Origin: Acidimicrobiia bacterium
Lineage (GTDB): Bacteria; Actinomycetota; Acidimicrobiia; Spongiisociales; ZC4RG35
DNA: 64,000 nt
Direction: 5' to 3'
Assembly (NCBI GenBank): GCA_035461175.1
Contig: DATHVR010000030.1
Coordinates: 9,392 to 73,391, forward strand
This document shows positions 3,266-35,227 of this stretch, piece after piece. Positions within the stretch are counted from its first letter, which is position 1. Each line of letters starts with the position of its first letter. A program made the translations under genes and the position numbers. Under the pieces are notes generated by a model. It ran no database searches, was not told the DNA's origin, and worked only from the letters and a program-made list of their open reading frames with translations.

Positions 3266-3274
3266 GGGTCCACC

Positions 3275-3847
3275 CTAGGCCCGAAGATCGAGTCTCATCA
3301 GTACCCGGGGAAAGCCGTTGAGGACCGAGTCGGTGTCGGCGGCTTTCGTGAAGCCGGCTCGCTCGAACAGCCCGCGGGTGCCCACGTATGCCATGGTCAG
3401 GTCGACCTTCTCGCCGCGGTTGTCGACCGGGTAGCCCTCGATAGCGGGCGCCCCGTTGTCGCGGGCGAAGTCGACCGCGCCCGCCAGCAGGTGGTGGGAG
3501 ATGCCCTGGCCCCGGTGACCCGGCCGGACCCGGATGCACCACACCGACCACACGTCGAGGTCGTCGACATGGGGGATCTTGCGGTTGCGGGCGAAGGCGG
3601 TGTCGGCACGCCGGGCCACTGCGGCCCAGCCCACCACCTCCTCTTCCTCGTAGGCGAGGACGCCGATCGGGCCTTGGTCGATGAGTTGCCTGATTCGTTC
3701 GCCCCGGGCGGGGCCGATCAGTTCCCGGTTCTCCTTCGACGGTACGCGGTAACTGAGGCACCAGCACACGTTGGCGTCAGGCCGCTTGGGCCCGACCATG
3801 GTCTTGACGTCGTCGAAGCGGTCGGCGGGTCGGATCTCAATGGCCAT
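3275..3847 (-). CDS. GNAT family N-acetyltransferase
   Basis: RGQGISHHLL…FARDNG is an acetyl-CoA-binding motif A/B pattern. Confidence 0.7.
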   Translation of the reverse strand: MAIEIRPADRFDDVKTMVGPKRPDANVCWCLSYRVPSKENRELIGPARGERIRQLIDQGPIGVLAYEEEEVVGWAAVARRADTAFARNRKIPHVDDLDVWSVWCIRVRPGHRGQGISHHLLAGAVDFARDNGAPAIEGYPVDNRGEKVDLTMAYVGTRGLFERAGFTKAADTDSVLNGFPRVLMRLDLRA

Positions 3848-4074
3848 ATCAGATGGATACCACAGACGGCTGAAAGACTCCGGCGCGCCAGAGCGCCCTA
3901 CCGGCGGTCTTCGGCGTCAGTCGATCGATTCCTCGGGCATCCGCGAGTACCACTCGTGGAACTCCGAGCACCGGCCGTCCGGGTCGAGGCGAAGCAGCCA
4001 GATGTTGTCGAAGACGCCGCGGGCCTCGCCGCGTTCCGGTTAAAAGAGGTGGGTTCGCGACCCATGGCGGATCC

Positions 4075-4674
4075 TCAGAAGTCGATGCGCATCACCGATC
4101 GGCGCTTGGTCGGCCGACTCACCTCGGTGAGGCCGGCAGCCAGGAAGGTGGCCGGGGTGCCGACGTGGAGTTCCTCGTCGATCACGTTCTTGGTGGTAGT
4201 CGGGTAGGCCTCCAGGGCTCGCACCCCCTGTGCGCGGGCGAAGTCGACCGCGGCCCTGGCCATGGTCCGGCTGATTCCTTGCTTGCGGTAACCGGCGCGG
4301 GTGAAGAGACAGGTCACCGCCCAGACGCTGTCGTCTTGCTTGTCCTCGTCCCGGCCTTCCCAGGGGACCCGGAAGACGCGCACCAGGCCGGTATATGCCG
4401 GGCGTGGCTCCACCGCGCACCATCCGACCGGTTCGCCGTTGAGGTAGGCGACGAGGCCGCTGGTGGTGTCGGAGTCGGGGTTGTCGCAGTCGGTCTGCTC
4501 ACGGAGCCGAAAGGCGCGCTCTTCTCTGGGGACGGATCCGAACGACTCCCGCGGCGCCAGTTTGTAGCGCTGGCACTGGCAGACGTGGCCCGTCCCACGA
4601 GAGCCGAATATCGCCTGCAGGTCTTCACACGCAGCTCGGTTGGCGGGGACGATCGAGAGGTCGCGGTCGGTCAT
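4075..4674 (-). CDS. GNAT family N-acetyltransferase (paralog of the upstream gene)
   Basis: RKQGISRTMARAAVDFARAQG parallels the adjacent GNAT gene. Confidence 0.7.
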   Translation of the reverse strand: MTDRDLSIVPANRAACEDLQAIFGSRGTGHVCQCQRYKLAPRESFGSVPREERAFRLREQTDCDNPDSDTTSGLVAYLNGEPVGWCAVEPRPAYTGLVRVFRVPWEGRDEDKQDDSVWAVTCLFTRAGYRKQGISRTMARAAVDFARAQGVRALEAYPTTTKNVIDEELHVGTPATFLAAGLTEVSRPTKRRSVMRIDF

Positions 4675-4991
4675 GCTGTGATTCTGGCCGCGGTTGCGGA
4701 CGGGTCGTGTCCTATTTCAGGAGGCACCTTGCGGGGCTCCGACCGAGGCGAGAGTGCAGGTGAACGCGTCTGGGGCGGTTGGTTGCACTTTCGTCGGGGT
4801 GAGGGTGACGAGTGAGCAGGCGCCCGCGCTCAGCGCGGTGCGATGCCCTCTCGTCGGGCCACCTTGGCGGCGGGCGTCGAATCGTCGACGACTCCGGAGC
4901 CCCCGCGGCGTGGATCCTGGCCGATCGGGCCGGCAATCGCGTGTGCATCGCTGCCTGGCCCGACGGGGCACCATCACCCGACGCCGCGGAC

Positions 4992-5741
4992 TCAGGCAGC
5001 CCCGCCACCGAAGCCGGCTGATCGGGCGGACAGCCTGAAGAGCCGGCGGGCGACGAGGATTGCGAACACAGCCCAGGGGAGCAGCGACGCCAGGGCGAAG
5101 ACCAATCCCACCGTGCCGAAGTTCGAAGGCACCGCCATCAGGACGGCGGCCGCCAGCCCCCACAGGGCCGTGGCTCTCGAGAACACCGTGGAGCGAAGCA
5201 TCAGGATGGCGAAGATCAGCAGCGTCGCCAGGTTGAAGAAGTAGTAGATGTCGAAGGCGGTGCCCATCCAGGTGGCGAGCATCCCGTCGCCCACGGCCAC
5301 CAACGCCACCTGTTCGGCGGGGCCGGCCCGACCGTATGAGTCGGCGAGTGCGAGCATCTCGACCGGGCGGGGCGAGGCCATGTACGCCGCCATCCCCAGG
5401 ACCCCGAACGCCAGGGCGACGACCACACCGGAACGGCTCACTTTCCACAAGACGACGGCCAGCGCGAAGTAGAGAAGGAACGCCAGCAGGTTGCTGACGA
5501 TGTACATCGCGTCGAGAGCGAGCATCCCCCGCGCGGGGTTGGCGATGAGCAGTTCGAAGAACTCAACAGTCGTCTCGGGTGGTGGCCAGGCCACATATAC
5601 CGCCATCTGGATGACGATCAGGACGACGCTCGCCACCGCCGACCACACCCCCACCATCAGGAGGCCCTTCCACTGGCTGTGCTCGGATATCGGGTCGCTC
5701 GTCGCGTCGATATCAGTGGTGGGTACAGCAACCTGTGCCAT
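4992..5741 (-). CDS. Hypothetical integral membrane protein (about 6 TM helices)
   Basis: ORF 4992..5975 trimmed to Met at 5741 (MAQVAVPTTD…). Strongly hydrophobic. Confidence 0.5.
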   Translation of the reverse strand: MAQVAVPTTDIDATSDPISEHSQWKGLLMVGVWSAVASVVLIVIQMAVYVAWPPPETTVEFFELLIANPARGMLALDAMYIVSNLLAFLLYFALAVVLWKVSRSGVVVALAFGVLGMAAYMASPRPVEMLALADSYGRAGPAEQVALVAVGDGMLATWMGTAFDIYYFFNLATLLIFAILMLRSTVFSRATALWGLAAAVLMAVPSNFGTVGLVFALASLLPWAVFAILVARRLFRLSARSAGFGGGAA

Positions 5742-5844
5742 GTGGTCACCGTAAGCAGCGGGTATTTCCCGGCCAGGGCACAAAGACCCGTCGCCCCTCC
5801 GCTTCTGCGGCCCATTTGCTCGACTCCGGTGCGATAGTTGAGCG

Positions 5845-6330
5845 ATGCCCCTCTCCGACATCCTTGAGACTGCACGTTTGGTCCTGCCTCCGCTCGAAGT
5901 CACGGACGCGAGCGAAATGGTCGGCGTGCTCTCCGACCCTGATCTGTATACGTTCACCGGTGGAGAGCCCCCCACCCTGGATGGTCTCGAGGATCAGTAC
6001 CGCCACCTGGTGGCTGGATCTCCCCGTCCAGGAGAAGACTGGCACAACTGGATTCTCCGTTTCGGGGAAGTTGCGGTCGGATTTGTCCAGGCGACCGTGC
6101 TGGGTGAGACGGCTGAACTGGCATGGGTGGTGGGGCTGCGATGGCAGCAGCGCGGCTTCGCGAGCGAGGCGTCTCTGGCCGTGGGTGACTGGCTCCGGGA
6201 CCAAGGTGTGGTCAGGTTGACTGCTCACATCCATCCGGAGCACCAGGCCTCGATGGCGGTTGCCACCCGACTCGGCCTTCGGCCCACGGATGAGTTCGAC
6301 GCCGAGGGGGAGCAAAAGTGGACATCGTGA
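5845..6330 (+). CDS. GNAT family N-acetyltransferase (RimJ/RimL-like)
   Basis: ARLVLPPLEVTDASEM…QQRGFASEA is the pattern of RimL-type acetyltransferases. Confidence 0.7.
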   Translation: MPLSDILETARLVLPPLEVTDASEMVGVLSDPDLYTFTGGEPPTLDGLEDQYRHLVAGSPRPGEDWHNWILRFGEVAVGFVQATVLGETAELAWVVGLRWQQRGFASEASLAVGDWLRDQGVVRLTAHIHPEHQASMAVATRLGLRPTDEFDAEGEQKWTS

Positions 6331-6814
6331 CGGTGGACCGACCGAGGTGGTAGCCCTTCGGTTGGAGCGACTGAGCATCGCCTACCAAAGCCGCTGCTCC
6401 GGCGGTGCTCTCCATCTGTCGCCGGTACTGGAAAGTCCACATGGCCCCGGCGTTTCGGTTCACAATCAGGGCTTCGGGGTAGTGGTGGCCGAGGGTGATC
6501 TCAAGCTGCACCATCCTGAGCGCAGACCGAATTTGCATTCGCCGTGCTCGAGGATGTGCCCTCCGTTCGCGGGCGAGGGGCTGCCCGACCGTGACGGGGT
6601 CGGGGGCACCGCCAACGCCACCCGATACCACGGTGTGCCGACGCGGGCCGCCGTTTGGTCGAGGAGCGGCGCCGGTCCGTCGTGGTGGTTGCGCCTCGCC
6701 GGGACGAAGCCGAGCTGTGGATCTATCCCTGATCCTGTCCGACTAGCGCTGACAGGAGCAGCGGCGCCTGCGACCAGCGACGCAGTTCTAAGCCTTGGCC
6801 AAATCGTCTCCGCT

Positions 6815-7489
6815 CTAGTCCGTACGTTCGGCCCGGCCGAGGGCATCGGCCAGTCCCCCGACGGCGTCGCTGTGGACCACGGCAAGCACTTCGTCCCCCT
6901 CCTCAATCATCAGGCGGCCGTGCCCGGCGAGAAGATCACCATCGCGAATGACCGCCACGATCACGCACTCGTCGGCCAGTTCGAGCTCCGAGACGGCCTG
7001 ACCCACCGCAGGTGCCCCGGCGGACACGGTCTCCTCCACCAACGAATACTGGCCGCGCTTGAGCTTGAGTAGCGTCGTCATCTCTCCGAGTGACATCTCC
7101 TCGGCCACCAGATGAGCCAAAAGGTCGGCCTGGTCGAGGGCTACGTCAACACCCATGTCCGGCTTAAAGAGCCAGGCGTTGCGAGGGTCCACGATGCGGG
7201 CGATCACCCGAGGGATATGGAACTCGAAGTGTGCCAGCGAAGCGATGACGAGGTTGGTCTCGTCCGTGCCGGTTACGGCTGCCACCACCTCGACCGAACG
7301 GATCCCCGCTCGCTCGAGGACGCGGGCGTCAGTCCCGGACCCTTCGATCACCTCTCCCCGCTCACTGAGGGAACCGGCCTTCACAGGATCGGACTCGACA
7401 ACACGTACCTCGTGGCCGCCTTCTGTCAGGAGCCCGGCGAGGCGACTCCCCACTTTGCCTCCTCCCACTATCAAAACCGAGGTGGTCAT
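6815..7489 (-). CDS. trkA: Trk system potassium uptake protein TrkA (CeoB/CeoC-like), RCK N+C domains
   Basis: VLIVGGGKVGSRLAGLL Rossmann motif plus an RCK_C segment. Confidence 0.85.
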   Translation of the reverse strand: MTTSVLIVGGGKVGSRLAGLLTEGGHEVRVVESDPVKAGSLSERGEVIEGSGTDARVLERAGIRSVEVVAAVTGTDETNLVIASLAHFEFHIPRVIARIVDPRNAWLFKPDMGVDVALDQADLLAHLVAEEMSLGEMTTLLKLKRGQYSLVEETVSAGAPAVGQAVSELELADECVIVAVIRDGDLLAGHGRLMIEEGDEVLAVVHSDAVGGLADALGRAERTD

Positions 7490-7495
7490 GACGCC

Positions 7496-8143
7496 CTACT
7501 CTCCGATCAGTTCTTCCAGGCGGGAGGCCGCTCCTGTCGCCACGACTAGATACACGATGTCGCCGGTATGCATGGGGGAGTTCCCATCCGGGATGAAGGT
7601 ACGTCCACCCCGACTGACGGCGGTGACGGCCAGTTCTCCCGGTACCTCGAGCTCCCGGCAAGGCCGACCATCGAGGCGGGCAGGGACGGTCACCTGATTC
7701 AGGTCTACCTGGCCGCCGCCGAGGCTGAAGACGGTGGCGACATCACGGGCCTGGAGAGCCTCGGATAGCCGACCGATACCCCACACGACCGGAGAGATAG
7801 TGACGACACCCAGGCGGCGATAGAGGTCCGCCTGTCTGGGGTCATACATGCGCGCCACCACCCTCGGGACCTGGAATCGTACGACCGCAGCCCGAGCTAC
7901 GACCGAGTTGACTTCATCGTTCCCGGTCACTGCCGCCAGGGCCTCGGTCCGCTCGATCCCGGCGGTCAAGAGCACCTTGCGATCGATGCCGAATCCCACG
8001 ATTTGCTCACCCGAGAAGCCGGCCGGCAGTCGATCGAAGGCCGCAGGGTCGGAATCGACCACCGTGACAGAATGACCCTCGAGGGCGAGCTGGTGGGCGA
8101 GGCCCGAACCTACCCGGCCGCAGCCGATCACGATCACTCGCAT
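7496..8143 (-). CDS. trkA: Trk system potassium uptake protein TrkA paralog
   Basis: MRVIVIGCGRVGSGLAHQL. The start ATG overlaps the stop of the upstream ATPase (ATGA). Confidence 0.85.
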   Translation of the reverse strand: MRVIVIGCGRVGSGLAHQLALEGHSVTVVDSDPAAFDRLPAGFSGEQIVGFGIDRKVLLTAGIERTEALAAVTGNDEVNSVVARAAVVRFQVPRVVARMYDPRQADLYRRLGVVTISPVVWGIGRLSEALQARDVATVFSLGGGQVDLNQVTVPARLDGRPCRELEVPGELAVTAVSRGGRTFIPDGNSPMHTGDIVYLVVATGAASRLEELIGE

Positions 8144-10902
8144 CAGGTCTTCCCCTTCTTTCTCGAGATTGCCTTGCGTGCCTCGTCGATCAGGGGAAGC
8201 AGGGGGATGCCCATAAGGAGCCACAGCCACCCGACGGGCGGGAAGGGGGCCGTACCGATCACGGCCTGCAGCGGCGGGAGATACACGATCAGCAAGATAA
8301 CGACTATCTCCGAAGCTACACCCCACCACAGGAGACGATTGCCCCCCAGACCCGTAGTCCGCAACGAGAGGCTACGGGAGCGCTGGGCGAAGAGGTTGCC
8401 AATCTGGGTGGCGACCACCATCGCCAGGGCCATGGCAGTCGCCGAGCTATACACAGCGCCGTCGGAAGGTAGATCGAGCCATCCCGAGTAGCCGGCAAGT
8501 CGGTAAGCCCCGAAGAAGGCGAGCATCACGGCCGCCGCCTGGGCCGGTCCCAGCCACAAGTAGGCGCGGCCGAGGAGCCGACGGTCAATCAGGTGTTCGG
8601 ATCGGCGACGTGGCGGCTGCTCCATGACCCCGGCTTCGGCGGGCTCCGCACCCAAAGCGAGGGCTGGGGCCAGGTCCGTGCCGAGATCGATGGCAAGGAT
8701 GTGCATCACGTCGAGCGCCAGCGGGATCCTGCCCCCAGAGAAGGCGAAGAGGATGAAGGGAACCGCCTCGGGGGTGTTGGAGGTGAGGATGTAGGTGGTG
8801 AACTTGCGGATGTTGGCGTACACCGCCCGCCCCTCCTCGACGGCGGCCACGATGGAGGCGAAGTTGTCGTCGAGAAGGATCACATCGGCCGCCTCCTTTG
8901 CCACATCGGTTCCTGTGACTCCCATCGCCACCCCGATGTCGGCTCGTTTGAGTGCGGGGGCGTCGTTGACGCCGTCGCCGGTCACGGCAACGACGTGGCC
9001 CTTTTGCTGTAGGGCGGCCACCACTCGCAGCTTCTGGTCGGGCGTGGCTCGCGCGAACAGAACTTCGCCTTCCAGTGCGTTTGCCAACTGTGCGTCATCG
9101 AGGATTTCGAGGTCGGGTCCGTTGATGATCTCGACCTCACCTTGAACCAGTCCGATCCGACGACCGACGGTCTCCGCCGTCAGTCCGTAGTCACCGGTGA
9201 TCATCACCGTGCGGATGCCCCCTCGGTGGCATTGCTCTACTGCGTCCGCCACCTCGGGGCGAGGTGGATCTTCCATCGCAACCAGGCCGAGGAATTCCAG
9301 ACTCCGCTCCAGGAGATCCGGATCGGGTTCGGTCGTCTGCCCCTCCGACCACACGTTCGATAGATCGCGGCGTGCAACTCCGAGGACGCGGAGTCCCTGC
9401 CGTGCATAGTGTTCCATTCTGGCCTCGAGGCCGGCGCGGAGCTCAAGATCCGTGCCCTGTCCCCGAACGGACTCGGCTCGTTCTAGCAGTTCGGCGGGCG
9501 CACCCTTGACCATGAGAGTGGGGATCCCGCCGACTGGGTGGATGCTGCTCATGCGTTTACGCAGCGAGTCGAATGGTAACTCGGACAGGCGCGGCGACTC
9601 GACCTCGAGCCGATCGAGATCGATGCCGGCCTTGCGTGCAGCTACCAGGAGGGCGCCCTCGGTGGGATCCCCGACGATCGACCATCGCTGGTGGTCCTCG
9701 TCGGGCTCCCGCAGCCGGGCATTGCTGGCAAGCGAAGCAGTCACCAGCAACTCGTGCAGCTGATAGTCGGGCGGCGGCGCAATGGCACCACTCGGGCCGT
9801 ATCCCACCCCCTCCACCTCGTACTCTCGGTCGGCGACGGCGATCCAGCGAACGGTCATCTCGTTCTGCGTGAGGGTGCCGGTTTTGTCCGTGCAGATGAC
9901 GGTGGTCGACCCGAGTGTCTCAACCGCCGATAGCCGCTTGACCAGGGCCTGTCTGTGGACCATGCGCTGGGTTCCCATCGCCAGGGCGAGTGTCACCGTG
10001 GGCAGGAGGCCCTCCGGCACGAAGGCAACGATCATCCCGAGGGCGAAGACGAAGCCGCGCTCGAACGACAGGCCGCCGAGCGACAGGGCGAGGATAAAGA
10101 AGAGGATTCCGATGCCGACGGCTATGGCACTCACGGTGTAGCTGACCCGCTTCAACTCGAGTTGGAGGGGACTGAGAGCTTGCTCGATCTCGCTGGTCAG
10201 AGCCGCCACCCGGCCGAACTCCGTGTCGGCCCCCGTGGCGGTGACCACCGCTTTTCCCCGGCCGGCGGCGACGCTGGTGCCGGCGAAGACCCGGTTGGGG
10301 AGCTCGGTGCGGGCTCGTCCATCGGTATCGCATGCCTCGGCCGCTTTCCGCACCGGGCGTGATTCGCCGGTCAGGGTGGACTGGTCGACTCGTAGCGACA
10401 GATGCTCCACGAGGCGGGCATCAGCGGATATCCGGTCGCCTTCCTCGAGCAGCACTACGTCTCCCGGGACCAGGGTTTCGGCCGGCACACGAGTAGCCAG
10501 TCCGTCCCGGAGCACGGTTGCGGACTGGGGGAGCAATTTGCGGAGAGCCTCTGTCGCCTGGTCGGCCCGGTATTCCTGCCACGAACTGAAGACGCCATTG
10601 ATTAGGTTGACGACCCAGATGGCCACCCCCAGTTGCGGGAGTCCGGCAACAAAGGCGATGACACCGCCAATCCAGAGCAACAGCGCCATCATGTGGACGA
10701 AGTTGGCCCCGTACCGCAGCAGAGCGGACTCGCGAGGGGGTTCGGGAATGGAGTTCGGTCCCTCTCGTTCGAAGCGCCGGGTCGCCTCGGCCGAGGCCAG
10801 ACCCCCCGGTCCGGTATCCAAACGACCGTAGACCTCTTCCGGTGGGAGGCTGGAGAGTTCCCCACCGGGAGTTATGTCGCTCGTGAGGGGTGGGATCGTC
10901 AC
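8143..10902 (-). CDS. Cation-transporting P-type ATPase (P2-type, CtpF/CtpE-like)
   Basis: 919 aa with DKTGTLT phosphorylation motif, TGES, GDGVNDAPAL and about 10 TM helices. GTG start. Confidence 0.9.
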   Translation of the reverse strand: MTIPPLTSDITPGGELSSLPPEEVYGRLDTGPGGLASAEATRRFEREGPNSIPEPPRESALLRYGANFVHMMALLLWIGGVIAFVAGLPQLGVAIWVVNLINGVFSSWQEYRADQATEALRKLLPQSATVLRDGLATRVPAETLVPGDVVLLEEGDRISADARLVEHLSLRVDQSTLTGESRPVRKAAEACDTDGRARTELPNRVFAGTSVAAGRGKAVVTATGADTEFGRVAALTSEIEQALSPLQLELKRVSYTVSAIAVGIGILFFILALSLGGLSFERGFVFALGMIVAFVPEGLLPTVTLALAMGTQRMVHRQALVKRLSAVETLGSTTVICTDKTGTLTQNEMTVRWIAVADREYEVEGVGYGPSGAIAPPPDYQLHELLVTASLASNARLREPDEDHQRWSIVGDPTEGALLVAARKAGIDLDRLEVESPRLSELPFDSLRKRMSSIHPVGGIPTLMVKGAPAELLERAESVRGQGTDLELRAGLEARMEHYARQGLRVLGVARRDLSNVWSEGQTTEPDPDLLERSLEFLGLVAMEDPPRPEVADAVEQCHRGGIRTVMITGDYGLTAETVGRRIGLVQGEVEIINGPDLEILDDAQLANALEGEVLFARATPDQKLRVVAALQQKGHVVAVTGDGVNDAPALKRADIGVAMGVTGTDVAKEAADVILLDDNFASIVAAVEEGRAVYANIRKFTTYILTSNTPEAVPFILFAFSGGRIPLALDVMHILAIDLGTDLAPALALGAEPAEAGVMEQPPRRRSEHLIDRRLLGRAYLWLGPAQAAAVMLAFFGAYRLAGYSGWLDLPSDGAVYSSATAMALAMVVATQIGNLFAQRSRSLSLRTTGLGGNRLLWWGVASEIVVILLIVYLPPLQAVIGTAPFPPVGWLWLLMGIPLLPLIDEARKAISRKKGKT

Positions 10903-11238
10903 AGGCAGCCGGGCGGAGAGGACACCGTCCGAACTGTAGGACTCGACGAGCCCGCGCAGCCTTCGCCGGCCATCCCGGCTTTAAGCCTTTGCGCCACCGC
11001 CGTCGAGAAGCGTCCCGAAAATCTGATCTGAGTCGCCAGCGGCACGATGTGGGCCTGGTGGCGCATGTCGACGGATGGCATGCCATTTCCCCGGATCGCC
11101 CGGCCGGCTCGCGTCAGAGGTGAGGGCTTTGCCACTGGTGTGAAGAGATGGGAGGGAATCCAGCCGGAGTCGAGATGAGTGTCGGCATGGGCCCGCACGA
11201 CCTCGACTGGTTCCTCCACGAGGTTGCGGATCGCCATC
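10899..11238 (-). CDS. Small hypothetical ORF translationally coupled to the P-type ATPase (possible decayed regulator)
   Basis: Its reading frame ends in TGA overlapping the ATPase GTG (GTGA). Upstream in the same frame is an AraC-HTH2-like stretch FNPARHFGRRFQRELK with no start codon. Speculative. Confidence 0.2.
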
Positions 11239-11314
11239 TCGGGATGGGCTCTTTTCAGTTCACGTTGGAAGCGCCGGCCGAAATGGCGGGCGGGATTGAA
11301 CCGGGCGTGAGCGC

Positions 11315-11962
11315 CTACTGGCTGTTGCCCGCGGCCGGAATGCCACCCCCTTGCTTGAGGATCGTCGCCATGTGCATCAGGTTCCAGCTCATGGTCTCCA
11401 GAGTCTGGTTGGTGAACTCGTTCTCGCGGCCGCCCGAGTCGGGATCCAGATAAGACGGACCCGGTCCCGCCTCGCCCACCCAGCCGGTGTCGGCCTGGGG
11501 AGGGATGGTGAAGCCGATGTGCTGGAGCGAGTAGAGCAGGTTCATCCCGCAGTGCTTGAGGCCGTCTTCGTTCCCCGACACCAGACACCCGCCAACCCGG
11601 CCGTAATAGATGTACTGGCCACGGTCGTTGGTCATACCGGAGCTGCTGTAGAGACGCTCCACGACGCGTGTGCAGACCGAGGATTTGTCGCCTAACCAGA
11701 TCGGTGTTCCGAGCACGAGGATGTCCGCCGCCAACACCCTCTCGAAGATTTCCGGCCAGGCGTCGTCCTCCCACCCTTCCTCCCGCATGTCGGGCGACAT
11801 CCCCGGCGCGATCGGATTGTCGACGGCTCGGATCACCTCCGTGGACACCCCCTGGGCCTGCATGATCCCGATCGAGCGGTCGATCAAGCCCTGGGTATGG
11901 GATGTCAGGGGGCTGGGCTTGAGGGTGCAGTTGATGAAGAGGGCACTGAGGTCGGTGGGCAT
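11315..11962 (-). CDS. Flavodoxin-like fold NAD(P)H-dependent FMN reductase family protein
   Basis: LVLGTPIWLG… is typical of the NADPH-dependent FMN reductase / flavodoxin_2 fold. Confidence 0.6.
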   Translation of the reverse strand: MPTDLSALFINCTLKPSPLTSHTQGLIDRSIGIMQAQGVSTEVIRAVDNPIAPGMSPDMREEGWEDDAWPEIFERVLAADILVLGTPIWLGDKSSVCTRVVERLYSSSGMTNDRGQYIYYGRVGGCLVSGNEDGLKHCGMNLLYSLQHIGFTIPPQADTGWVGEAGPGPSYLDPDSGGRENEFTNQTLETMSWNLMHMATILKQGGGIPAAGNSQ

Positions 11963-12172
11963 GGCGCTCCAGTCCGGCTACCAGCCGATTATGCGTGAGA
12001 CGGGGGCGCTGTGGAGATCTAGGTCCGCACGACCGGAACCGGGCCGGTTTTTCCGTGCAAACTGTTCCGGCTGAGGCAGGTGGCGAGTCGGGAACGGCGC
12101 CGGCAGGGTGAAAGCCCCCCGGAGCGGACAGAGGCGGCTGCTCCGGGAGGCTGCGGTCATCGCCCGCTGGGT

Positions 12173-12820
12173 CTACTCCGCCAGGGCGTCGAGCCACTCA
12201 CCCCAGTAGTAACGCCACCGTTCGACGTCCTCGGGGTCGGCAAGGCGCTCGTGGCTCACGGTGAGCCTGACTCGGCCCTCGCCAGCCGGATCGATCGAGA
12301 ACAGGGCACTGCCCCCACCGAGGGCTATACGCGGGTTGCGTGATCTCGGCCTGGAGCGGATCTCGGTGTCGAGTCCGGGGAACAGGTCGGCGTGGGCGTC
12401 CTCGTCGAGGAGCAGCGCCTTCAGTTCCTCCGGGTCGAGATCGAGGGTCTTCGACTTGCTGAGGGTGAAGGTTCCGTCGGGCCGCTGATGCGGCAGCCGC
12501 CTCCCCGTGATCCTCTCGAAACCGAGAGTGACGGTCTGAGCCCACCATCCGTCGACTCCCACCTCGTCGGCCAGATACGAGGCGATGGCACCGTGGTCGG
12601 CACCGGCCACCGGCGACGCCTCGAGCAGGTCACACCATTCGTTCCAGGTACGACCGGTCTCCTCGCGGACGGTGTCGTCGGCGACCTCGGGCGCGGACAC
12701 CCACTCGCGGTGTCGGCCTTCGCCTGCCGAGATCAGATGCCGGCGGGCGGCGCTGTAGCGCTCACCGGTCTTTTCCATACGCGCCCGGATCCGGTGCTTG
12801 AAGGATTCCTGTCGGGTCAT
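12173..12820 (-). CDS. Conserved hypothetical protein (DUF4287-like N-terminal region)
   Basis: ORF trimmed to MTRQESFKHR… The GRTWNEWCDLLE…GWWAQTVTLGFE pattern resembles DUF4287. Confidence 0.45.
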   Translation of the reverse strand: MTRQESFKHRIRARMEKTGERYSAARRHLISAGEGRHREWVSAPEVADDTVREETGRTWNEWCDLLEASPVAGADHGAIASYLADEVGVDGWWAQTVTLGFERITGRRLPHQRPDGTFTLSKSKTLDLDPEELKALLLDEDAHADLFPGLDTEIRSRPRSRNPRIALGGGSALFSIDPAGEGRVRLTVSHERLADPEDVERWRYYWGEWLDALAE

Positions 12821-26776: not shown

Positions 26777-26784
26777 CCACCAAG

Positions 26785-26890
26785 GTGCAGATACGCCCCG
26801 TCATGGGGGGCAATTGCACGTTGGATTGGAGACGGACCCGGTGTTGCTGACCGACGTGCAGATACGGCCCGTCACGGTGGGTAACTGCCC
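26785..26890. promoter_or_regulatory. Two tandem 35-bp dyad-containing repeats (period 71 bp) upstream of the Nfo-PolDom gene; candidate operator
   Basis: Copy 1 (26785..26819) is GTGCAgatacgCCCCgtcatGGGGggcaatTGCAC. Copy 2 (26856..26890) is GTGCAgatacggCCCgtcacggtGGGtaacTGCCC. Confidence 0.4.
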
Positions 26891-26925
26891 GTCGGTTTCG
26901 CCGGCGAGGTACGTACTCTTCCGGC

Positions 26926-28722
26926 ATGATCACGGTTGGGATCTCCCAGCTTCCTCCCGACGGCGTCTCCGACGCCGGTTTTCTCGACGATTTGGTCGAA
27001 CAGGGGTTCAACGCCCTGGAGCTTCCCTTCGTCACCGACTTTCCCTGGAAGGAGAAGCGGTGCGCCGAGTTCGGGAAGGTGGCGGCCGAACGCGGGATCC
27101 GGCTGTCCGTTCACGCCCCCTATTTCGCCACCCTGACACCCGAGGATGCCGAGCGTGGAGCCCAGTGCCTGGCGGCGCTGGAGCACACGATGAAGCTGGG
27201 GATGGCACTGGGGGCCCCGATCATCGTCGCCCACGGCGGCTCTACCCACGGTGAACCGGCCGAGGTGCTTTTAGACCGGATCTCGGAGCGGCTGGAACGG
27301 GTGGCCCCCAAGGTCGAGAATCTGGGGGTGGGATTGGGGCTGGAGACGGCGGGAAAGGAAGGGGCGTGGGGGACCCTGGGCGACATCGCCCTCGCCGCCG
27401 CCCGGTTTTCGTTCGTGCGTCCCGTGGTGGACTGGGCCCACCTCCATGCCGCCACCGGGGGCGGCCTCACCTCCCGGGAGGCTTTCGCCCAAGTCTTCGC
27501 CTTTTTGGGGTCGGAATTCCCGGGCTGGATAATCGACCCGCTCCACTGCCACTTCACCGACAATCTGGTCGGCCCCAAGGGAGAGGTGAAGCACCTCCCC
27601 TACGGGGACGGGACCCTGCGGGTGGGGCCGCTCGTGGAGGCGGCCCAGGAGGCGGGAACCAGCCTCAATCTGGTGTCGGAAGCGCGCGAGAGGGAGAGTC
27701 ACCAGGAGATCCTGGCCGAGATCCGTGCCACCGAGCAGAAGCGGGAGACGGCCGACACCTCCCGGCCGCTGGGATCGGGTCGGGTGGATTTCCCTGCTCC
27801 GATCCGGGCCGAGCGGGAAGCCGATCGCTACCGGCCCCGCACCGCCTCGCCGCTCACCCTCTCCAACCTCGATAAGCCGTTCTTCCCCGAGGGTTACACC
27901 AAGGGCGACCTGATCCAGTACTACGCCTCAGTAGCCGACGTGCTCCTTCCCCACCTCGCCGGTCGCCCGCTCTCCATGTCCCGCTACCCCGACGGGATCG
28001 GCGGCCCCCAGTTCTATGAGAAGCGGGCTCCCGGCCACCAACCCGACTGGATGCCCACCACTCCGGTTCCCTCCGACTCCCAGGGGGGTCAGATCGAGTT
28101 CATGCTGGCCGATCGGCGTGAGGCGCTGATGTGGTTCGCCAACATGGGCTGTGTCGAGGTCCATCCCTTCCATTCCCGGGCGGGGTCGCTCGAGACCCCC
28201 GACTACGCCATCTTCGACCTCGACCCCGCCGAGGGCGCCGAATGGGAGCAGGTGGTGGCGGGTGCTCACCTTATCCATGTGGCGCTGGGTCAACTGGGGA
28301 TGGTCGGGGTGCCGAAGCTGTCCGGAAGCAGGGGAATCCACGTCTACGTGCCGATCGAGGCCCGCTTCGGCTACGAGCGGGTGCGGCGGTTCGTGGGCGA
28401 GGTGGGCCGCTACCTGGTGGCGGCCAATCCCGACGACCTGACGATGAAATGGGACAAGCCGAAGCGGCGGGGGAAGGTGTTCATCGACCACAACCGCAAC
28501 GCCTCGGGCCAGACGATCGCCTCCGTGTACTCGGTGCGTCCCCGACCCGGTGCACCGGTGTCAGTCCCGATGCGCTGGGACGAGGTGGCGGCCATGCGCA
28601 ACGGCGACATCACCATCGCCAACCTGTGGGAGCGCCTCCAGCGCCATGGAGACCTCTTCGCCCCGATCCTGGGTCCCAGGCACCCCCTGGAGCCCGCCGA
28701 GGAGGCGCTGGGTCTGTCATGA
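26926..28722 (+). CDS. Fusion protein: Endonuclease IV (Nfo, AP endonuclease family 2) TIM-barrel domain + LigD-type NHEJ primase-polymerase (PolDom) domain
   Basis: Residues 1-280 carry the Nfo metal-site pattern (HAPYF, HGGS, LETAG, VDWAHLHA, HCHFTDN, LVSE). Residues about 300-598 carry LigD Pol motifs (LSNLDKPFFPEGYTKGDLIQYY, FDLDP, SGSRGIHVYV, KVFIDHNRNASGQTIASVYSVRP). It is a single uninterrupted ORF. Confidence 0.8.
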   Translation: MITVGISQLPPDGVSDAGFLDDLVEQGFNALELPFVTDFPWKEKRCAEFGKVAAERGIRLSVHAPYFATLTPEDAERGAQCLAALEHTMKLGMALGAPIIVAHGGSTHGEPAEVLLDRISERLERVAPKVENLGVGLGLETAGKEGAWGTLGDIALAAARFSFVRPVVDWAHLHAATGGGLTSREAFAQVFAFLGSEFPGWIIDPLHCHFTDNLVGPKGEVKHLPYGDGTLRVGPLVEAAQEAGTSLNLVSEARERESHQEILAEIRATEQKRETADTSRPLGSGRVDFPAPIRAEREADRYRPRTASPLTLSNLDKPFFPEGYTKGDLIQYYASVADVLLPHLAGRPLSMSRYPDGIGGPQFYEKRAPGHQPDWMPTTPVPSDSQGGQIEFMLADRREALMWFANMGCVEVHPFHSRAGSLETPDYAIFDLDPAEGAEWEQVVAGAHLIHVALGQLGMVGVPKLSGSRGIHVYVPIEARFGYERVRRFVGEVGRYLVAANPDDLTMKWDKPKRRGKVFIDHNRNASGQTIASVYSVRPRPGAPVSVPMRWDEVAAMRNGDITIANLWERLQRHGDLFAPILGPRHPLEPAEEALGLS

Positions 28723-29384: not shown

Positions 29385-29439
29385 GGTAGCGTCTCCCTCA
29401 GCTTGTTTTCTCGAGCGAAGGAGCGGGTAACAGTCCCTG

Positions 29440-30378
29440 ATGCCGCCGGAAACGCACAACGTCGCGGTCTTTGCCCCCAGCCTGCTCATCACCGTCACGG
29501 TCGAGTCGGGCGGAGATGACTACGACGAGATCCACTTCCACATGGGTGGCCAGGGCTACTGGGTCGCTCGGGGGATCAGGGAACTGGGGGAGAGGCCGAT
29601 CCTCACTGCTCCCGTCGGAGGGGAGCCTGGTCAGGTGATTCGGGGCCTGGTGGCATCGACCGGTCTCGACTTCTCGCCGGTCCAGATCGCCGGTCCCTCC
29701 CCCGGATACGTCCACGACCGCCGCCATGGTGAGAGAAGGGTCCTCGCCACGTCCCGTTCGCCGGATCTCGACCGGCACGAAACCGACGACCTCTATGCCC
29801 GGACCCTCCAGCACTCGGTGACCGCCGGCGTCTGTGTCATCACCGGCCGGCGGGATGAAGACCGTCTCTCCGTGGACCTGTACCGCCGGCTGGGAACCGA
29901 CTGTGCCGCCGCCGGCGTCACCTCGGTCGGCGATTTCCACGGTGACGAGCTGACGGCCTTCCTGGAGGGAGGACCGCTCGGCCTGCTCAAGGTGAGCGAT
30001 GAGGATCTGGCCCGCGACGGATTGTTGGGTGAGGGCGCGCCGGATGCTGAGGTTTGGGAGGCCATCGACCACCTGTGCGACTCCGGTGCCCGGACCGTCG
30101 TCGTCTCCCGGGGCCGCGACGGCGCCCTGGGGCGATTCGGAGTCAGGCGGGTGAAGGCGGTTCCCCCGGCCTTCGAGGTGGTCGACCCGGCGGGTTCGGG
30201 CGACTCCATGACGGCCGCCCTCGCCGTCGCCACCGTGCGCGGGCTCGACCCCGAGGACACGCTGCGTCTGGCCTGCGCCGCCGGGGCGGCCAATGTCACC
30301 CGGCACGGTCTGGGCAGCGCCCCGGTCGACCTCGTCGCCCGGGTGGTCCCACTGATCGAGATCCAAGGAGAGGAGTGA
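29440..30378 (+). CDS. PfkB family carbohydrate/nucleoside kinase (ribokinase-like)
   Basis: C-terminal DPAGSGDSMTAALA matches the PfkB signature 2. Confidence 0.75.
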   Translation: MPPETHNVAVFAPSLLITVTVESGGDDYDEIHFHMGGQGYWVARGIRELGERPILTAPVGGEPGQVIRGLVASTGLDFSPVQIAGPSPGYVHDRRHGERRVLATSRSPDLDRHETDDLYARTLQHSVTAGVCVITGRRDEDRLSVDLYRRLGTDCAAAGVTSVGDFHGDELTAFLEGGPLGLLKVSDEDLARDGLLGEGAPDAEVWEAIDHLCDSGARTVVVSRGRDGALGRFGVRRVKAVPPAFEVVDPAGSGDSMTAALAVATVRGLDPEDTLRLACAAGAANVTRHGLGSAPVDLVARVVPLIEIQGEE

Positions 30379-30384
30379 GTCGAG

Positions 30385-31206
30385 ATGGAAGCCGAACGGT
30401 TGGAGGTCGACACCAGGGCACGACCCCGCCACACCCCTCGCCGGGTGTTGCTCACCAACGACGACGGTATCGGATCGAAGGGCCTGTACGAGCTGGCCAC
30501 GGCGCTGGCAGGCGACCACGAAGTGGTCGTGGTCGCCCCCCAGGACGAACGCAGCGGCTCCGGAACAGGTATCGGCTACTTCGATCCCGTCCAGGGCGTG
30601 GGGGTCACCTCCTCCTGGGTGGCGGGTAGCCCGGCGCACGCTATCGACGGTCCGCCGGGGCTGGCGGTCATGTCGGCGATGCTGGGGGCGTTCGGCGACC
30701 TTCCGGATGTGGTCGTTTCGGGGATCAATCCCGGGATCAACACCGGCCACTCCGTGCTGCACTCGGGGACGGTCGGCGCCGTCCTCACCGCCCGGACCTT
30801 CGGATGTGACGGGGTGGCGGTCAGCCTGGCCTCCGGCGACAGTTGGCACTGGAAGACGGCGGCGGAGATCGCCCTCCCGGTGATCCGGTGGGTGCTGGAG
30901 CGCCCGGTACCCCAGCCGACGACCATCAATCTGAATGTGCCGGGGATGGAGATGGACGACGTGCGGGGAGTTCGCTGGGCGGATCTCGACGTCTTCGGAT
31001 ACTTCCGGGTGGCGGCGACAGACGATCCCGGGGAGCGACTCCAGTTCGAGGTCGGGCCACCCGAAGCGGGTCTCGATCCGGCCTCCGACACCGCCCTCGT
31101 CTCGGGTGGCTACGCCACGGTCACTCCGCTGGCCACGGTCCAACCGGCAGCCTTTCCCGATTCCCCACCTCCCGGTTGCGAACGGTTTGAACGCAGGGGC
31201 GAATAG
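30385..31206 (+). CDS. surE: 5'/3'-nucleotidase SurE
   Basis: RVLLTNDDGIGSKGL is the SurE N-terminal signature. Confidence 0.85.
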   Translation: MEAERLEVDTRARPRHTPRRVLLTNDDGIGSKGLYELATALAGDHEVVVVAPQDERSGSGTGIGYFDPVQGVGVTSSWVAGSPAHAIDGPPGLAVMSAMLGAFGDLPDVVVSGINPGINTGHSVLHSGTVGAVLTARTFGCDGVAVSLASGDSWHWKTAAEIALPVIRWVLERPVPQPTTINLNVPGMEMDDVRGVRWADLDVFGYFRVAATDDPGERLQFEVGPPEAGLDPASDTALVSGGYATVTPLATVQPAAFPDSPPPGCERFERRGE

Positions 31207-31218
31207 CCTCCAACGAGG

Positions 31219-32055
31219 ATGGAACGGCTGGTCGATCTCGTACGCGACGGCGGTGTGGCCGTGCTCACTGGCGCGGGCGTCTCCACCGATTCCGGCATCC
31301 CCGATTACCGGGGTGATCCGAACCGGGTTCGGCGTCCGCCCATCACCTACCGGGAGTTCGTCACGGACGTCCAGGGCCGGCGCCGCTACTGGGCTCGCAG
31401 CCACCTCGGTTGGAGGCGAATCACCGACGCCGTCCCCAACACCTCCCACCAAGCCGTCGCCAACCTCGAGGCCGCGGGATTGGTAGGTCCGGTGATCACC
31501 CAGAACGTGGACGGGCTTCACACCGCCGCCGGGTCACGGCGGGTGCTCGAACTCCACGGCTCGCTCCATCGCACCCTGTGCCTCGGATGCGGGGATCGTC
31601 GCTCCCGGCTGGAGCTGCACCACCGGCTCTCCGCCGCCAATCCCCGCTTCGATGAGGAGGAAGTCGAGTTCGCTCCGGACGGCGACGCCGTCATCTCCGA
31701 CGGGCTCACCACCCGCTTTCGGGTGGTCGACTGCCTGGGCTGTGGCGGGCTGCTCAAACCCGATGTGATCTTCTTCGGCGAGAACATCCCTCGCCCACGT
31801 GTGGAAGAGGCCTACCGCCTGGTCGCGGCCGCCACGTCATTGCTGGTGCTGGGTTCCTCCCTGACGGTCATGTCCGGCTACCGGTTTGTCCTCGCCGCTC
31901 ACGCCGCTTCGATCCCGGTGGCGATCGTGAACCGGGGACCCACCCGGGGCGACCAGCTGGCCGATGTCCGTATCGAGGGAGGGCTCGCCCCGGTGATGGC
32001 GGCGCTGGCCCGAACCGTCGGAGGCCCGGCCGGGAGATACCCTCTCACGGGGTGA
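31219..32055 (+). CDS. NAD-dependent protein deacylase, Sir2 (sirtuin/CobB) family
   Basis: GAGVSTDSGIPDYRG, HG, and CxxC…CxxC zinc-ribbon motifs. Confidence 0.85.
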   Translation: MERLVDLVRDGGVAVLTGAGVSTDSGIPDYRGDPNRVRRPPITYREFVTDVQGRRRYWARSHLGWRRITDAVPNTSHQAVANLEAAGLVGPVITQNVDGLHTAAGSRRVLELHGSLHRTLCLGCGDRRSRLELHHRLSAANPRFDEEEVEFAPDGDAVISDGLTTRFRVVDCLGCGGLLKPDVIFFGENIPRPRVEEAYRLVAAATSLLVLGSSLTVMSGYRFVLAAHAASIPVAIVNRGPTRGDQLADVRIEGGLAPVMAALARTVGGPAGRYPLTG

Positions 32056-33220: not shown

Positions 33221-34117
33221 TCAGGCCATTCCGAAGCGGGCTTCGAAGCGCTCGGCCTTGGTCATGATCTCGCCCGGGAGGGCCATCAGCTTCTCCTGGA
33301 GCTCGGAGGCGGTGGCGTCGAGGCCATCGAGCTCGGGGATGCCCCATTGCCTGAGCAGGGGCATGACGATCGAGTCGTGGTGGATGCGCAGGTTGTACAC
33401 CCCCGCCTTGGCGATGTCGATCGAACGGCGCAGGAAGCCCGGGATCCCCACCCCGGGCATCTGGAAGTTCTTGAAGGTGCGATAGATCCCCTCCAGGGCG
33501 ATAGTGGGCTGGAGTTCGATCATCGACTGCATCACGCCCTTGTAGAACATGAAGTGGTGGTTCTCGTCGGCGGCGATGTTGCGCATCAACTCGAAGGCGG
33601 TCTCGTCCTCGGTGATCTTGCCCGTGTTGCGATGTGATACCCGGGTGGCGAGTTCCTGGGCCGAGGTGTAGGCGAACAACTCGGCGACGTGACTGAAGTC
33701 GGGCTCGTAGCCGGCGGTCATCGTGGCCATGCGGTCGTCCTCGAGTTCGACCGGGTCACAGTTGCGGCTGGTGAGCAGGTAGGACCGGATGGCGATGGCG
33801 TGCTGGCCCTCCTCGGCGGTCCACAGCCCGTTCCACTCCTTCCACACCGAGCCCTCGGGGAGGTTGGTGTCGAGGATCTGGTGGTAGTAGGGGAGGTTGT
33901 CCTCGGTGAGCAGGTTGAGGACGAGGGAGGTGCGAGCCCGTTCGTTGATGGTGGCCTGAGACTCCTCCCACGGCTCCTTGACGAAGTTCCTCCCCATCTC
34001 CCAGGGGATGAAGTCGTGGAAGTACCAATGCTTGCGCCGTTCCCGATGCTCGGCGAGAAGACGGGCGACGGTGGGCTCGAGGGCCTCGACGAGTTCGAGA
34101 TGTTGGTTGGCGGCCAT
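33221..34117 (-). CDS. Acyl-ACP desaturase (DesA1/DesA2-like soluble di-iron desaturase)
   Basis: ORF 33221..34864 trimmed to MAANQHLEL (SD gaggagg). Di-iron motifs EENRH-like (TEDNLPYYH…AEEGQHAIAIR, AADENHHF). Confidence 0.85.
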   Translation of the reverse strand: MAANQHLELVEALEPTVARLLAEHRERRKHWYFHDFIPWEMGRNFVKEPWEESQATINERARTSLVLNLLTEDNLPYYHQILDTNLPEGSVWKEWNGLWTAEEGQHAIAIRSYLLTSRNCDPVELEDDRMATMTAGYEPDFSHVAELFAYTSAQELATRVSHRNTGKITEDETAFELMRNIAADENHHFMFYKGVMQSMIELQPTIALEGIYRTFKNFQMPGVGIPGFLRRSIDIAKAGVYNLRIHHDSIVMPLLRQWGIPELDGLDATASELQEKLMALPGEIMTKAERFEARFGMA

Positions 34118-34219
34118 GGGGCCTCCTCGTGTGGGAGATGTTGTCCCTAAGACCCTGCCCCACTTCCAATGGTTACATTCATGTCTTCGCGAGTCGTCAA
34201 GTTTCGATACGGTAAGCGG

Positions 34220-35227
34220 ATGGATCTCTACGCCCGGGTCAACATTCTCGACGGACGCGCCGTGCGGTTGCCGCGCGGCGACGTCCACGATGCCATCGCT
34301 CTCCACAACGATCCCTTCGAGCGGGTCATGAACTGGTTCCAGCAAGGAGCCGACCACGTCCACGTCGTCGATCTGGATGCCGCCGCCTTCGGTGACTACA
34401 AGAATCGGCCCCTGATCGACCGGATCCTGGAGGAATCCACCGGCGAAGTACAGCTGGCCGGCGGCATCCGCTCCCACGTCGAGGCGGCCCGTCTCCTGGA
34501 CCAGGGGGCGTGGCGGATCGTGATGGGAACCGCGGCCATCGAAGACCAGAACATGGTGTGGGACTTGTGCCGCGACTTCCCCGGGCGGATCGTCGTCTCC
34601 CTCGACGTCCGCCCCGACGAGGAGGTGGCGACCCGGGGGTGGACCAAGAACTCGGGCCGATACCTGGAGGAGGTCCTGATCGAGATGTCCTCCGCCGGGG
34701 CCGCCGCCTTCTTCGTCAGCGAGGTGGGCCGCGACGTCATCACGGAGACCACCAACATCCAGATCCTGGCCGAGGCCCTGGCCACCGTCGAAGAGCCGAT
34801 CGTGGCCGCCGGGGGAGTCCGCGACCTCGAGGACCTGCGCCGCCTGCTCTCGCTCTCGATCCACGAGCGCCAGGTCGACGGCGTGGTGGTGGGCCGCGAG
34901 GTTACCCAGGGCCGGTTCACACTGAGCGAGGCCAAGGAAATCATTGCCGCCGGCCCGCCCCGCGTCCCGATCGAAATCTCCGAGCCACGCCAGGAGACCC
35001 GCTCCACTCTGCCGCCGCTGATGGCCGATGCCGCTGCGGCCTACATGCGGGTGGCCGAGATCTCAGAACAGGCGGCCGGCCAGGCCCGAACCGCCGCCCA
35101 CCACATGCAGGAGGGCGACGGAAGCACCGGGGCCGCCCATGCCTTCGCCGTCCAGGGCCATCTGGCCTCCGCCCTGGAGCAGATCGAGAACCTGGCCAAG
35201 GCGCACGCCAAGGGGACCCAGCCCTGA
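34220..35227 (+). CDS. HisA/HisF-family TIM-barrel protein with about 100-aa Ala-rich C-terminal extension
   Basis: MDLYARVNILDGRAVRL…VHVVDLDAA is HisA-like. It is not in a his operon. Confidence 0.6.
   Translation: MDLYARVNILDGRAVRLPRGDVHDAIALHNDPFERVMNWFQQGADHVHVVDLDAAAFGDYKNRPLIDRILEESTGEVQLAGGIRSHVEAARLLDQGAWRIVMGTAAIEDQNMVWDLCRDFPGRIVVSLDVRPDEEVATRGWTKNSGRYLEEVLIEMSSAGAAAFFVSEVGRDVITETTNIQILAEALATVEEPIVAAGGVRDLEDLRRLLSLSIHERQVDGVVVGREVTQGRFTLSEAKEIIAAGPPRVPIEISEPRQETRSTLPPLMADAAAAYMRVAEISEQAAGQARTAAHHMQEGDGSTGAAHAFAVQGHLASALEQIENLAKAHAKGTQP

Follow-up and report, generated by a model that had tools for sequence, protein, structure and literature searches.

What would a bacterium do with a protein that joins a nuclease of the endonuclease IV kind to a polymerase of the kind found in LigD? 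The question is raised by a gene in a 64,000-nucleotide stretch of DNA, here called the window, from an Acidimicrobiia bacterium (assembly GCA_035461175.1, contig DATHVR010000030.1, positions 9,392 to 73,391). The gene lies at 26926..28722 on the forward strand, stop codon included, and encodes 598 amino acids (aa). Its first half specifies an endonuclease-IV-like TIM barrel and its second half a LigD-type primase-polymerase. One genuine gene encodes both domains and both are intact. We think it probable that the product is a bifunctional DNA-repair enzyme. The protein would combine 3'-end cleaning, or incision at apurinic/apyrimidinic (AP) sites, with the filling of short gaps, mainly gaps of base-excision repair (BER) or at single-strand breaks.

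The open reading frame (ORF) begins at the ATG at 26926, which is the earliest possible start after the preceding stop. Its third-position GC is 0.84 and its codon-usage model score is 216; the model was partly trained on the same ORF, so the score is not independent. In Pfam searches, AP_endonuc_2 matched residues 21-265 (97.6 bits, E 1.2e-27). LigD_Prim-Pol (PF21686) matched residues 325-578 along the entire profile (positions 1-254 of 254; 300.2 bits, E 1.7e-89, cutoff 27.4). A preliminary description of the locus had read it as a single 598-aa frame carrying these two domains, and the Pfam matches agree. On the forward strand, the barrel occupies residues 1-268 (26926..27729) and the polymerase residues 294-598 (27805..28719). 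Between them is a linker of residues ~269-293 (27730..27804), bounded by the last helix of the barrel (256-275) and the first matches to LigD models (294-299). An exact-sequence look-up of the protein returned no record.

The same architecture was found in many other assemblies. A search of 5.8 billion proteins gave more than 120 clusters of full-length homologues, at 65-96% identity and ~100% coverage, and both Pfam domains were present in all. The clusters were drawn from NCBI, JGI, ENA and Logan assemblies. We also scanned one genome per GTDB species. Here, 309 stretches encode relatives, and all counts over 80 loci refer to the best 80 of these 309. The 80 loci, from independent metagenome-assembled genomes (MAGs), each carry an uninterrupted fusion ORF of 595-610 aa. 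Matches began at query residues 1-5 and ended at 581-598, with 79 of the 80 reaching at least residue 594. In an alignment of 54 full-length fusion homologues, on which all statements of residue conservation among fusions are based, conservation was unbroken across the domain junction and linker (mean column identity 74%). A chimeric contig, or a frameshift that joined two neighbouring genes, would be the trivial explanation for such a protein. Frameshifted copies do exist, since a lineage with the reverse domain order has the gene split in two assemblies (see below), and nothing in the present lineage points that way. Taken together, the full-length homologues, the 80 MAG loci and the conserved linker exclude a chimeric assembly. 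The junction, which the preliminary description had marked for checking, is thus no assembly artefact, and we regard the probability of any such artefact, including one of gene calling, as negligible.

The best 80 loci are labelled as Acidimicrobiia MAGs almost throughout and no cultured organism was seen among them. Some bins of the Microflora Danica (MFD) set are labelled Acidobacteriota. These (L013, L017, L019, L024 and others) are titled 'uncultured Acidobacteriota bacterium' and their fusion proteins group with those of Acidimicrobiia, at 64-68% identity. The record titles may be wrong labels. Database names for the fusion homologues include 'non-homologous end-joining DNA ligase', 'bifunctional LigD' and 'TIM barrel protein'. 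Hence, proteins with no ligase domain are systematically mis-annotated as 'DNA ligase' or 'LigD'. We found no published description of the architecture in the full-text literature, which leaves most subscription journals outside its coverage. The architecture itself is frequent in sequence databases; it is the description, and not the sequence, that is missing. The suggestion that the fusion was undescribed therefore stands for the literature. It falls for the databases, where wide occurrence had been named beforehand as counting against it.

By sequence, the C-terminal half is a bona fide LigD-type primase-polymerase, and it is not a Prim-PolC if that subfamily is defined by Loop 3. The NCBIfam model ligD_pol (TIGR02778) matched with 244.2 bits against a cutoff of 214.7. 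With PF21686, this bears out the earlier assignment of the polymerase half by profile. The model for whole LigD (TIGR02776) gave 255 bits against a cutoff of 373, and the match was confined to the polymerase part (309-583). The best sequence matches in the PDB were the Methanocella NHEJ (non-homologous end joining) polymerase 5DMU (187 bits) and Mycobacterium smegmatis Prim-PolC (177.6 bits). The M. tuberculosis LigD polymerase domain (PolDom; 148.3 bits) and the P. aeruginosa LigD polymerase (139.8 bits) followed. When the full-length structural model was used as a Foldseek query, Prim-PolC came first (E 2.9e-27) and 5DMU next; the template-modelling score (TM-score) to 5DMU, normalised to the target, was 0.90.

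The polymerase motifs listed in the preliminary description are all present: FDLDP, with D431 and D433, SGSRGIHVYV at 466-475, KVFIDHNRN at 517-525 and SVRP at 536-539. The catalytic aspartates D431, D433 and D521, together with SGSRGIH (S466-H472), align to the motifs of the M. tuberculosis PolDom. The DxD of the active site (D431-L432-D433) is encoded at 28216..28224 on the forward strand and aligns to the catalytic DLD of that enzyme. D431, D433, D521, G467, G470 and H472 were invariant in 54 of 54 fusion homologues. The 5'-phosphate pocket of Prim-PolC, as defined in PMC7442782, comprises N20, K23, Y25, K35 and P65. In our alignment, these correspond to N314, K317, F319, K326 and P355. The pocket residues N314, K317, K326, R353 and P355 were invariant in the 54 homologues; position 319 was F in 45 and Y in 9.

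Loop 3 is a C-terminal extension, residues 313-333 of M. smegmatis Prim-PolC, and defines the Prim-PolC subfamily (Brissett et al., 2020, PMC7442782). The extension is absent from the window protein: the alignment stops at Prim-PolC residue 295-300, where only 8 residues of the window protein remain. Among the homologues, the tails beyond the GDLF motif measure 19-25 aa. Membership of the Prim-PolC subfamily was rejected on this ground. In Pfam searches, the fusion protein had no match to DNA_ligase_A_M or DNA_ligase_A_C and none to the 3'-phosphoesterase domain LigD_N (PF13298). The TIM barrel stands N-terminal to the polymerase.

We conclude that the N-terminal half is an endonuclease-IV-like metallo-phosphodiesterase of a divergent, mostly archaeal subfamily; its action on DNA is predicted from this kinship. 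The Nfo model TIGR00587 scored 34 bits against a cutoff of 129.65, and the PRK01060 sub-models 15-16 bits against cutoffs of 244-376. Even so scored, nfo was consistently the best specific family, both for the window protein and for its relatives. Identity between the N-terminal domain and bacterial Nfo is ~19%. To place the barrel, we built a profile from 51 members of its family (A1) and ran it against the PDB. The profile matched MJ1311 (3WQO) over its full length (positions 6-276, 72.7 bits, E 2.9e-19). Staphylococcus aureus endonuclease IV (69 bits, E 4e-18) and Apn1 (62.5 bits, E 3.7e-16) were next, and further bacterial endonuclease IV enzymes scored 42-57 bits. Alignment of the barrel family to Escherichia coli Nfo with hhalign gave a probability of 98.1% and E 1.2e-13; the Nfo sequence used is identical to that of 1QTW.

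All nine ligands of the trinuclear metal site of E. coli Nfo could be placed by the hhalign alignment, as the preliminary description had anticipated. Nfo residues H69, H109 and E145 correspond to H63, H103 and E140; D179, H182 and H216 to D169, H172 and H207; and D229, H231 and E261 to E220, H223 and E252. In addition Y72 of Nfo, which intercalates into DNA from the minor groove and is next to the first histidine ligand, corresponds to Y66. The domain, which had been claimed to be Nfo, is thus Nfo-like, but by its TIGR00587 score it is not a canonical Nfo. Eight of the nine putative ligands were invariant in the 54 fusion homologues. Across the wider barrel family, seven of the nine positions were invariant and the other two, H207 and E252, were at least 90% conserved. 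Position 66 was tyrosine in 49 of 51 barrel-family members and in 54 of 54 fusions. The neighbour of H207, H209, was glutamine in 48 of the 54 fusion homologues. The HxH form of the window protein is that of the stand-alone family and only 6 of the 54 fusion homologues keep it.

An exhaustive search of 1.84 billion cluster representatives delimited the barrel family at 698 clusters with E <= 1e-3 and 356 with E <= 1e-10. The majority stand alone, as proteins of 265-300 aa. The named stand-alone relatives are archaeal (Micrarchaeota, Thermoplasmata, Methanobacteriota and Syntropharchaeia) and are labelled 'deoxyribonuclease IV' by JGI and 'TIM barrel protein' by NCBI. Two stand-alone relatives (P0124 and P0148) have no polymerase, ligase or Ku gene adjoining. 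A similarly divergent archaeal homologue, Pyrococcus furiosus PF0258 (PfuAPE), is a genuine AP endonuclease at only 13.5% identity to E. coli Nfo (Kiyonari et al., 2009, PMC2770678). The same paper lists MJ1311 as the Methanocaldococcus jannaschii EndoIV homologue. A search seeded with P0240, whose N-terminus resembles the primer-encoded start of PF0258, returned only uncultured archaeal proteins, and the tie of the barrel subfamily to PF0258 is inferential. One 290-aa database entry (P0138) consists of the first ~50 residues of a class-III aminotransferase followed by the family TIM barrel, and is probably a gene-call or assembly chimera.

The AlphaFold2 model of the full-length protein had a mean predicted local distance difference test value (pLDDT) of 91.6 and a predicted TM-score (pTM) of 0.90. 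Within the linker, the lowest 10-residue block had a pLDDT of 71, and short strands were predicted at 279-281, 294-298 and 301-304. Because the pTM is high and the linker partly structured, the model suggests a fixed arrangement of the two domains. By Foldseek, no PDB chain covered both halves (query-normalised TM-score <=0.46).

The two domains also occur fused in the opposite order. Three proteins of 600 aa from Actinomycetota MAGs (P0132, P0271 and P0272) have the polymerase at residues 30-281 and the TIM barrel at 347-581. Compared with the window protein, P0132 and P0271 show 42% identity in the polymerase and 39% in the barrel. The motifs HFTD, YG.G.LR..PL.EA and SEARE are common to both types of fused barrel and differ from the stand-alone consensus. 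At the loci concerned (L089 10001-11803; L090 and L091 10001-11802) the neighbours are unrelated housekeeping genes: ffh, rpsP, trmD, rplS, lepB and rnhB on one side and comM, dprA and xerC on the other. On one flank of the gene is an rnhB/UPF0102 cluster and on the other comM-dprA-xerC. Two independent assemblies have the gene as separate ORFs of 255 and 345 aa that overlap by 4 nt inside the polymerase domain, probably through a frameshift, whether genuine or due to a sequencing error. The occurrence of the same two domains in opposite orders argues that the pairing is functional and not accidental.

Genes for Ku and for ligases were sought by tblastn in the window and in 90 related loci. 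The Ku probe was the M. tuberculosis sequence, verified by a Pfam Ku match of 180 bits. The others were a LigC-type ligase from an annotated Streptomyces plasmid record and three full-length LigD proteins from annotated plasmid records. At E <= 1e-3, Ku had no match in the window or in any of the 90 loci. No ligase was detected in the window, where the LigD probes matched the polymerase domain alone. The earlier statement that the window has neither gene therefore holds at tblastn sensitivity. Among the 90 loci, matches to LigC and to the LigD phosphoesterase (PE) domain were confined to one Actinomycetota MAG (L053), in which the ligase belongs to a PE-Lig-Pol set. This set consists of overlapping genes for LigD_N (5098-5688), an ATP-dependent ligase (5685-6692) and a second LigD_Prim-Pol (6599-7591). 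A distance of 2.4 kb separates this split LigD operon from the fusion gene downstream of it (~9989-11803), and no other of the 80 loci has a ligase nearby. Since a complete PE-Lig-Pol set stands beside it, the fusion at this locus is not a mere stand-in for a missing PE.

How might the two halves work together? Endonuclease IV cuts on the 5' side of AP sites and also takes off 3'-phosphate, 3'-phosphoglycolate and 3'-unsaturated aldehyde groups. Polymerases of the LigD Prim-Pol family bind a 5'-phosphate, fill short gaps and prefer ribonucleoside triphosphates (rNTPs). In the model that we favour, the N-terminal domain would cut at abasic sites, or strip such blocks from 3' ends, and so leave a 3'-OH. 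The polymerase domain would then dock on the 5'-phosphate across the gap and add one to a few nucleotides; like its relatives, it would probably use rNTPs. Closing the remaining nick would fall to an ATP-dependent ligase whose gene lies elsewhere. The main substrates would be single-strand gaps formed during base-excision repair or the repair of single-strand breaks. What the analysis shows is the two-domain architecture and its fold, catalytic residues conserved in each half, a pairing that recurs in both orders and the lack of an adjacent Ku gene; the enzymatic activities, the substrate, the partner ligase and the pathway are what we infer.

A precedent exists in mycobacteria, where FPG, EndoIV, Prim-PolC and LigC1 together repair 8-oxoguanine in vitro (Plocinski et al., 2017, PMC5663958). 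In that system, EndoIV is the best 3'-processing enzyme for gap repair by Prim-PolC and LigC, and it co-purifies with LigC (PMC5663958). Excision or single-strand-gap repair of this type fits the fusion at least as well as NHEJ does. Both cases pair 3' cleaning of the EndoIV type with subsequent fill-in by a 5'-phosphate-anchored LigD-family Prim-Pol, and Prim-PolC is the best structural and second-best sequence match of the window polymerase. The fusion might thus be a covalently linked version of the mycobacterial EndoIV and Prim-Pol steps, not part of Ku-dependent double-strand-break joining. It differs from the mycobacterial set in that both activities reside on one polypeptide, with a divergent, archaeal-type EndoIV-like nuclease, a polymerase that lacks Loop 3 and no adjacent gene for LigC. 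Bacterial LigD offers a second comparison. There too a LigD-type polymerase is covalently joined to a 3'-end-processing phosphoesterase, and databases give the fusion the LigD name. Unlike LigD, the window protein has no ligase or PE (LigD_N) domain, Ku is not encoded nearby, and the end-processing domain has an unrelated fold, a TIM barrel with an Nfo-like metal site. In the locus with the PE-Lig-Pol operon, the canonical split set and the fusion coexist. Known endonuclease IV enzymes (Nfo/Apn1, PfuAPE and MJ1311) are, unlike the window barrel, not fused to a polymerase. The parts and their chemistries are known; what the combination adds to the LigD theme, a polymerase joined to a 3'-end healer, is a different nuclease fold.

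Several observations weigh against the model. The polymerase lacks Loop 3, which is the hallmark of the Prim-PolC enzymes specialised for short gaps (PMC7442782), and its best sequence match is an NHEJ polymerase. The barrel falls below curated Nfo thresholds, and its closest solved relative, MJ1311, carries the deposited name 'D-tagatose 3-epimerase-like protein'. H207, the equivalent of Nfo H216, is histidine in the window protein and glutamine in 23 of the 54 fusion homologues (43%); one metal site may hence be altered in part of the fusion family. No assayed member of the TIM subfamily, fused or free, was found. The conserved neighbours include no ligase, glycosylase or other repair gene, and the gene that is conserved downstream is HisA-like. 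The absence of Ku applies to the neighbourhood and not to the rest of the genome.

Some of these points speak for a role in NHEJ instead, in which the barrel would substitute for the LigD phosphoesterase and heal the 3' ends of double-strand breaks. The polymerase would carry out templated or microhomology-dependent fill-in, with Ku and a stand-alone ligase encoded elsewhere. The best sequence match of the polymerase half is the Methanocella paludicola NHEJ polymerase 5DMU, which likewise lacks Loop 3, is unlike the window protein a stand-alone polypeptide, and works with separately encoded Ku, ligase and PE. The polymerase half passes the LigD-pol equivalog-domain model. The 3'-phosphatase and 3'-diesterase chemistry of endonuclease IV overlaps that of the PE domain, as is generally known for Nfo. 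A Sir2 homologue has been linked to mycobacterial NHEJ, and a gene for a SIR2-family deacetylase directly follows the fusion gene in 12 of the 80 loci (in L001 at 11810-12634, 10 nt past the stop). In the window, such a gene is located 2.5 kb downstream (31219-32055, forward strand). Conversely, the verified Ku probe found nothing in the window or the 90 related loci. Where a full PE, ligase and Pol operon is present, the fusion is an extra paralogue beside it, and the remaining 79 loci show no tie of the fusion to a ligase, be it in gene order or in neighbourhood. The genomic context thus lends no support to the preliminary proposal that an Nfo domain replaces the LigD phosphoesterase in NHEJ. 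Because Ku linkage is missing and a full LigD set coexists with the fusion, we favour gap repair over Ku-dependent joining. The latter is rather unlikely, but is kept in play by the missing Loop 3, which otherwise restricts Prim-PolC to short gaps (PMC7442782), and by the closeness to an archaeal NHEJ polymerase.

Two further readings concern the barrel. In one, it is not a DNA nuclease at all but some other metal-dependent member of the superfamily, either a sugar isomerase/epimerase or a phosphodiesterase like CbiR, and the fusion serves a non-repair or regulatory purpose. The Pfam match is to a generic family, the deposited name of MJ1311 is that of an epimerase relative, and weak, sub-threshold matches to CbiR were seen. 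Foldseek E-values were alike for epimerases and endonuclease IV. The highest-Z structural neighbours of the N-terminal domain were nevertheless endonuclease IV enzymes, with TM-scores of 0.70-0.79 compared to 0.60-0.67 for tagatose and psicose epimerases; the sugar-type barrels Art22 (0.70) and YcjR (0.72-0.75) overlap the lower endonuclease IV values. Profile A1 separated the two more clearly, with E 4e-18 for endonuclease IV against 5e-5 for tagatose 3-epimerase. The epimerase match is far the weaker, and a sugar isomerase/epimerase identity was rejected on the profile and structure scores. All nine trinuclear-site ligands and the Tyr72 equivalent of Nfo are moreover conserved, and it is difficult to see why a sugar enzyme should be fused to a DNA polymerase in two orders. 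We consider a non-nuclease barrel improbable. The other reading is alternative excision repair of the UvdE kind. Here, a nick made by the barrel on the 5' side of a UV photoproduct or another bulky lesion would serve the polymerase as the starting point for repair synthesis. UvdE was the best single-sequence PDB match of the N-terminal domain (E 7.8e-4), and several family members have weak Pfam UvdE matches. That identity was also rejected: Pfam UvdE (PF03851) gave 11.5 bits against a gathering cutoff of 24, and profile A1 scored UvdE at ~40 bits, below the values for endonuclease IV and MJ1311. A UvdE-like pathway is most improbable.

A more specific form of the clean-and-fill model can be put forward tentatively. 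The protein would be a Ku-independent, single-polypeptide enzyme that incises or cleans and then fills, in which a docked nuclease hands the 3'-OH straight to the Prim-Pol by substrate channelling. Docking would be rigid, and the patch laid by the polymerase would be short and made of ribonucleotides. Two roles would pass to the nuclease domain, that of the LigD PE domain and the holding of the upstream duplex that Loop 3 provides in Prim-PolC. Both orders of the pairing would have evolved within Actinomycetota from an archaeal-type EndoIV.

The fusion matters beyond this locus. Most work on bacterial LigD-family polymerases has treated them as NHEJ enzymes, and the proposal that some of them serve BER alongside endonuclease IV comes largely from a single mycobacterial system. 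A natural fusion, conserved in many Acidimicrobiia species and recurring in reversed order in another lineage, is independent evidence of the Rosetta-stone type that both activities share a substrate. The protein offers a compact and testable model for the hand-off from end cleaning to gap filling. It also gives a functional handle on a large, mostly archaeal family of EndoIV-like proteins.

The genes around the fusion were catalogued in the window and at the other loci. Upstream in the window are genes for a HAD protein and an MDMPI protein, both on the reverse strand, a 92-aa membrane protein and YkuD. Downstream, all on the forward strand, are those for DUF3159, PfkB, SurE, SIR2 and a 6PGDH-like protein. 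No repair gene is found among these named neighbours. Across the 80 loci only two neighbours are conserved. A HisA-like paralogue lies ~90 nt downstream on the same strand in 70 loci, and beyond it an aldehyde dehydrogenase gene in 60. In the window, a block of ~5.4 kb parts these two genes from the fusion. The HisA-like paralogue there (34169-35227, forward strand, 352 aa) matches His_biosynth with 169 bits, below the HisA equivalog cutoff, and has ~100 extra C-terminal residues past the match. It has no visible link to DNA repair.

The G+C content of the window is ~67%, so long spurious ORFs are common. Two antisense ORFs are typical high-GC artefacts: 29398-31521 (reverse strand, 707 aa) overlaps the forward-strand PfkB and SurE genes, and 33221-34864 (reverse strand, 547 aa) overlaps the HisA-like gene. 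A Dyadobacter chenhuakuii plasmid (L087, NZ_CP099631.1) encodes a full-length LigD at 3213-6713, followed 25 nt on and on the same strand by xth, the gene for exodeoxyribonuclease III. Here too, a LigD-family enzyme adjoins an AP endonuclease or 3'-processing nuclease.

The intergenic region just upstream of the fusion gene, 149 nt in length, is mostly taken up by two copies of a 49-nt element. A repeat search placed the copies at 26779-26827 and 26850-26898, 71 nt apart and 80% identical. A promoter scan found no sigma-70-like site upstream of the fusion, and Rfam had no match anywhere in the window. The 19-nt core of the element, GTGCAGATACGSCCCGTCA, occurs in none of 94 other loci. It occurs twice in the window, both times here, against an expectation of 0.04. 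The second 49-nt copy is an imperfect palindrome of 23+23 nt, and RNA folding of the intergenic region gave a z-score of -2.5. The repeats may be a pair of operators, a small repeat element or hairpins of a 5' untranslated region or other RNA; all of these are candidate roles, and any tie to the gene is putative.

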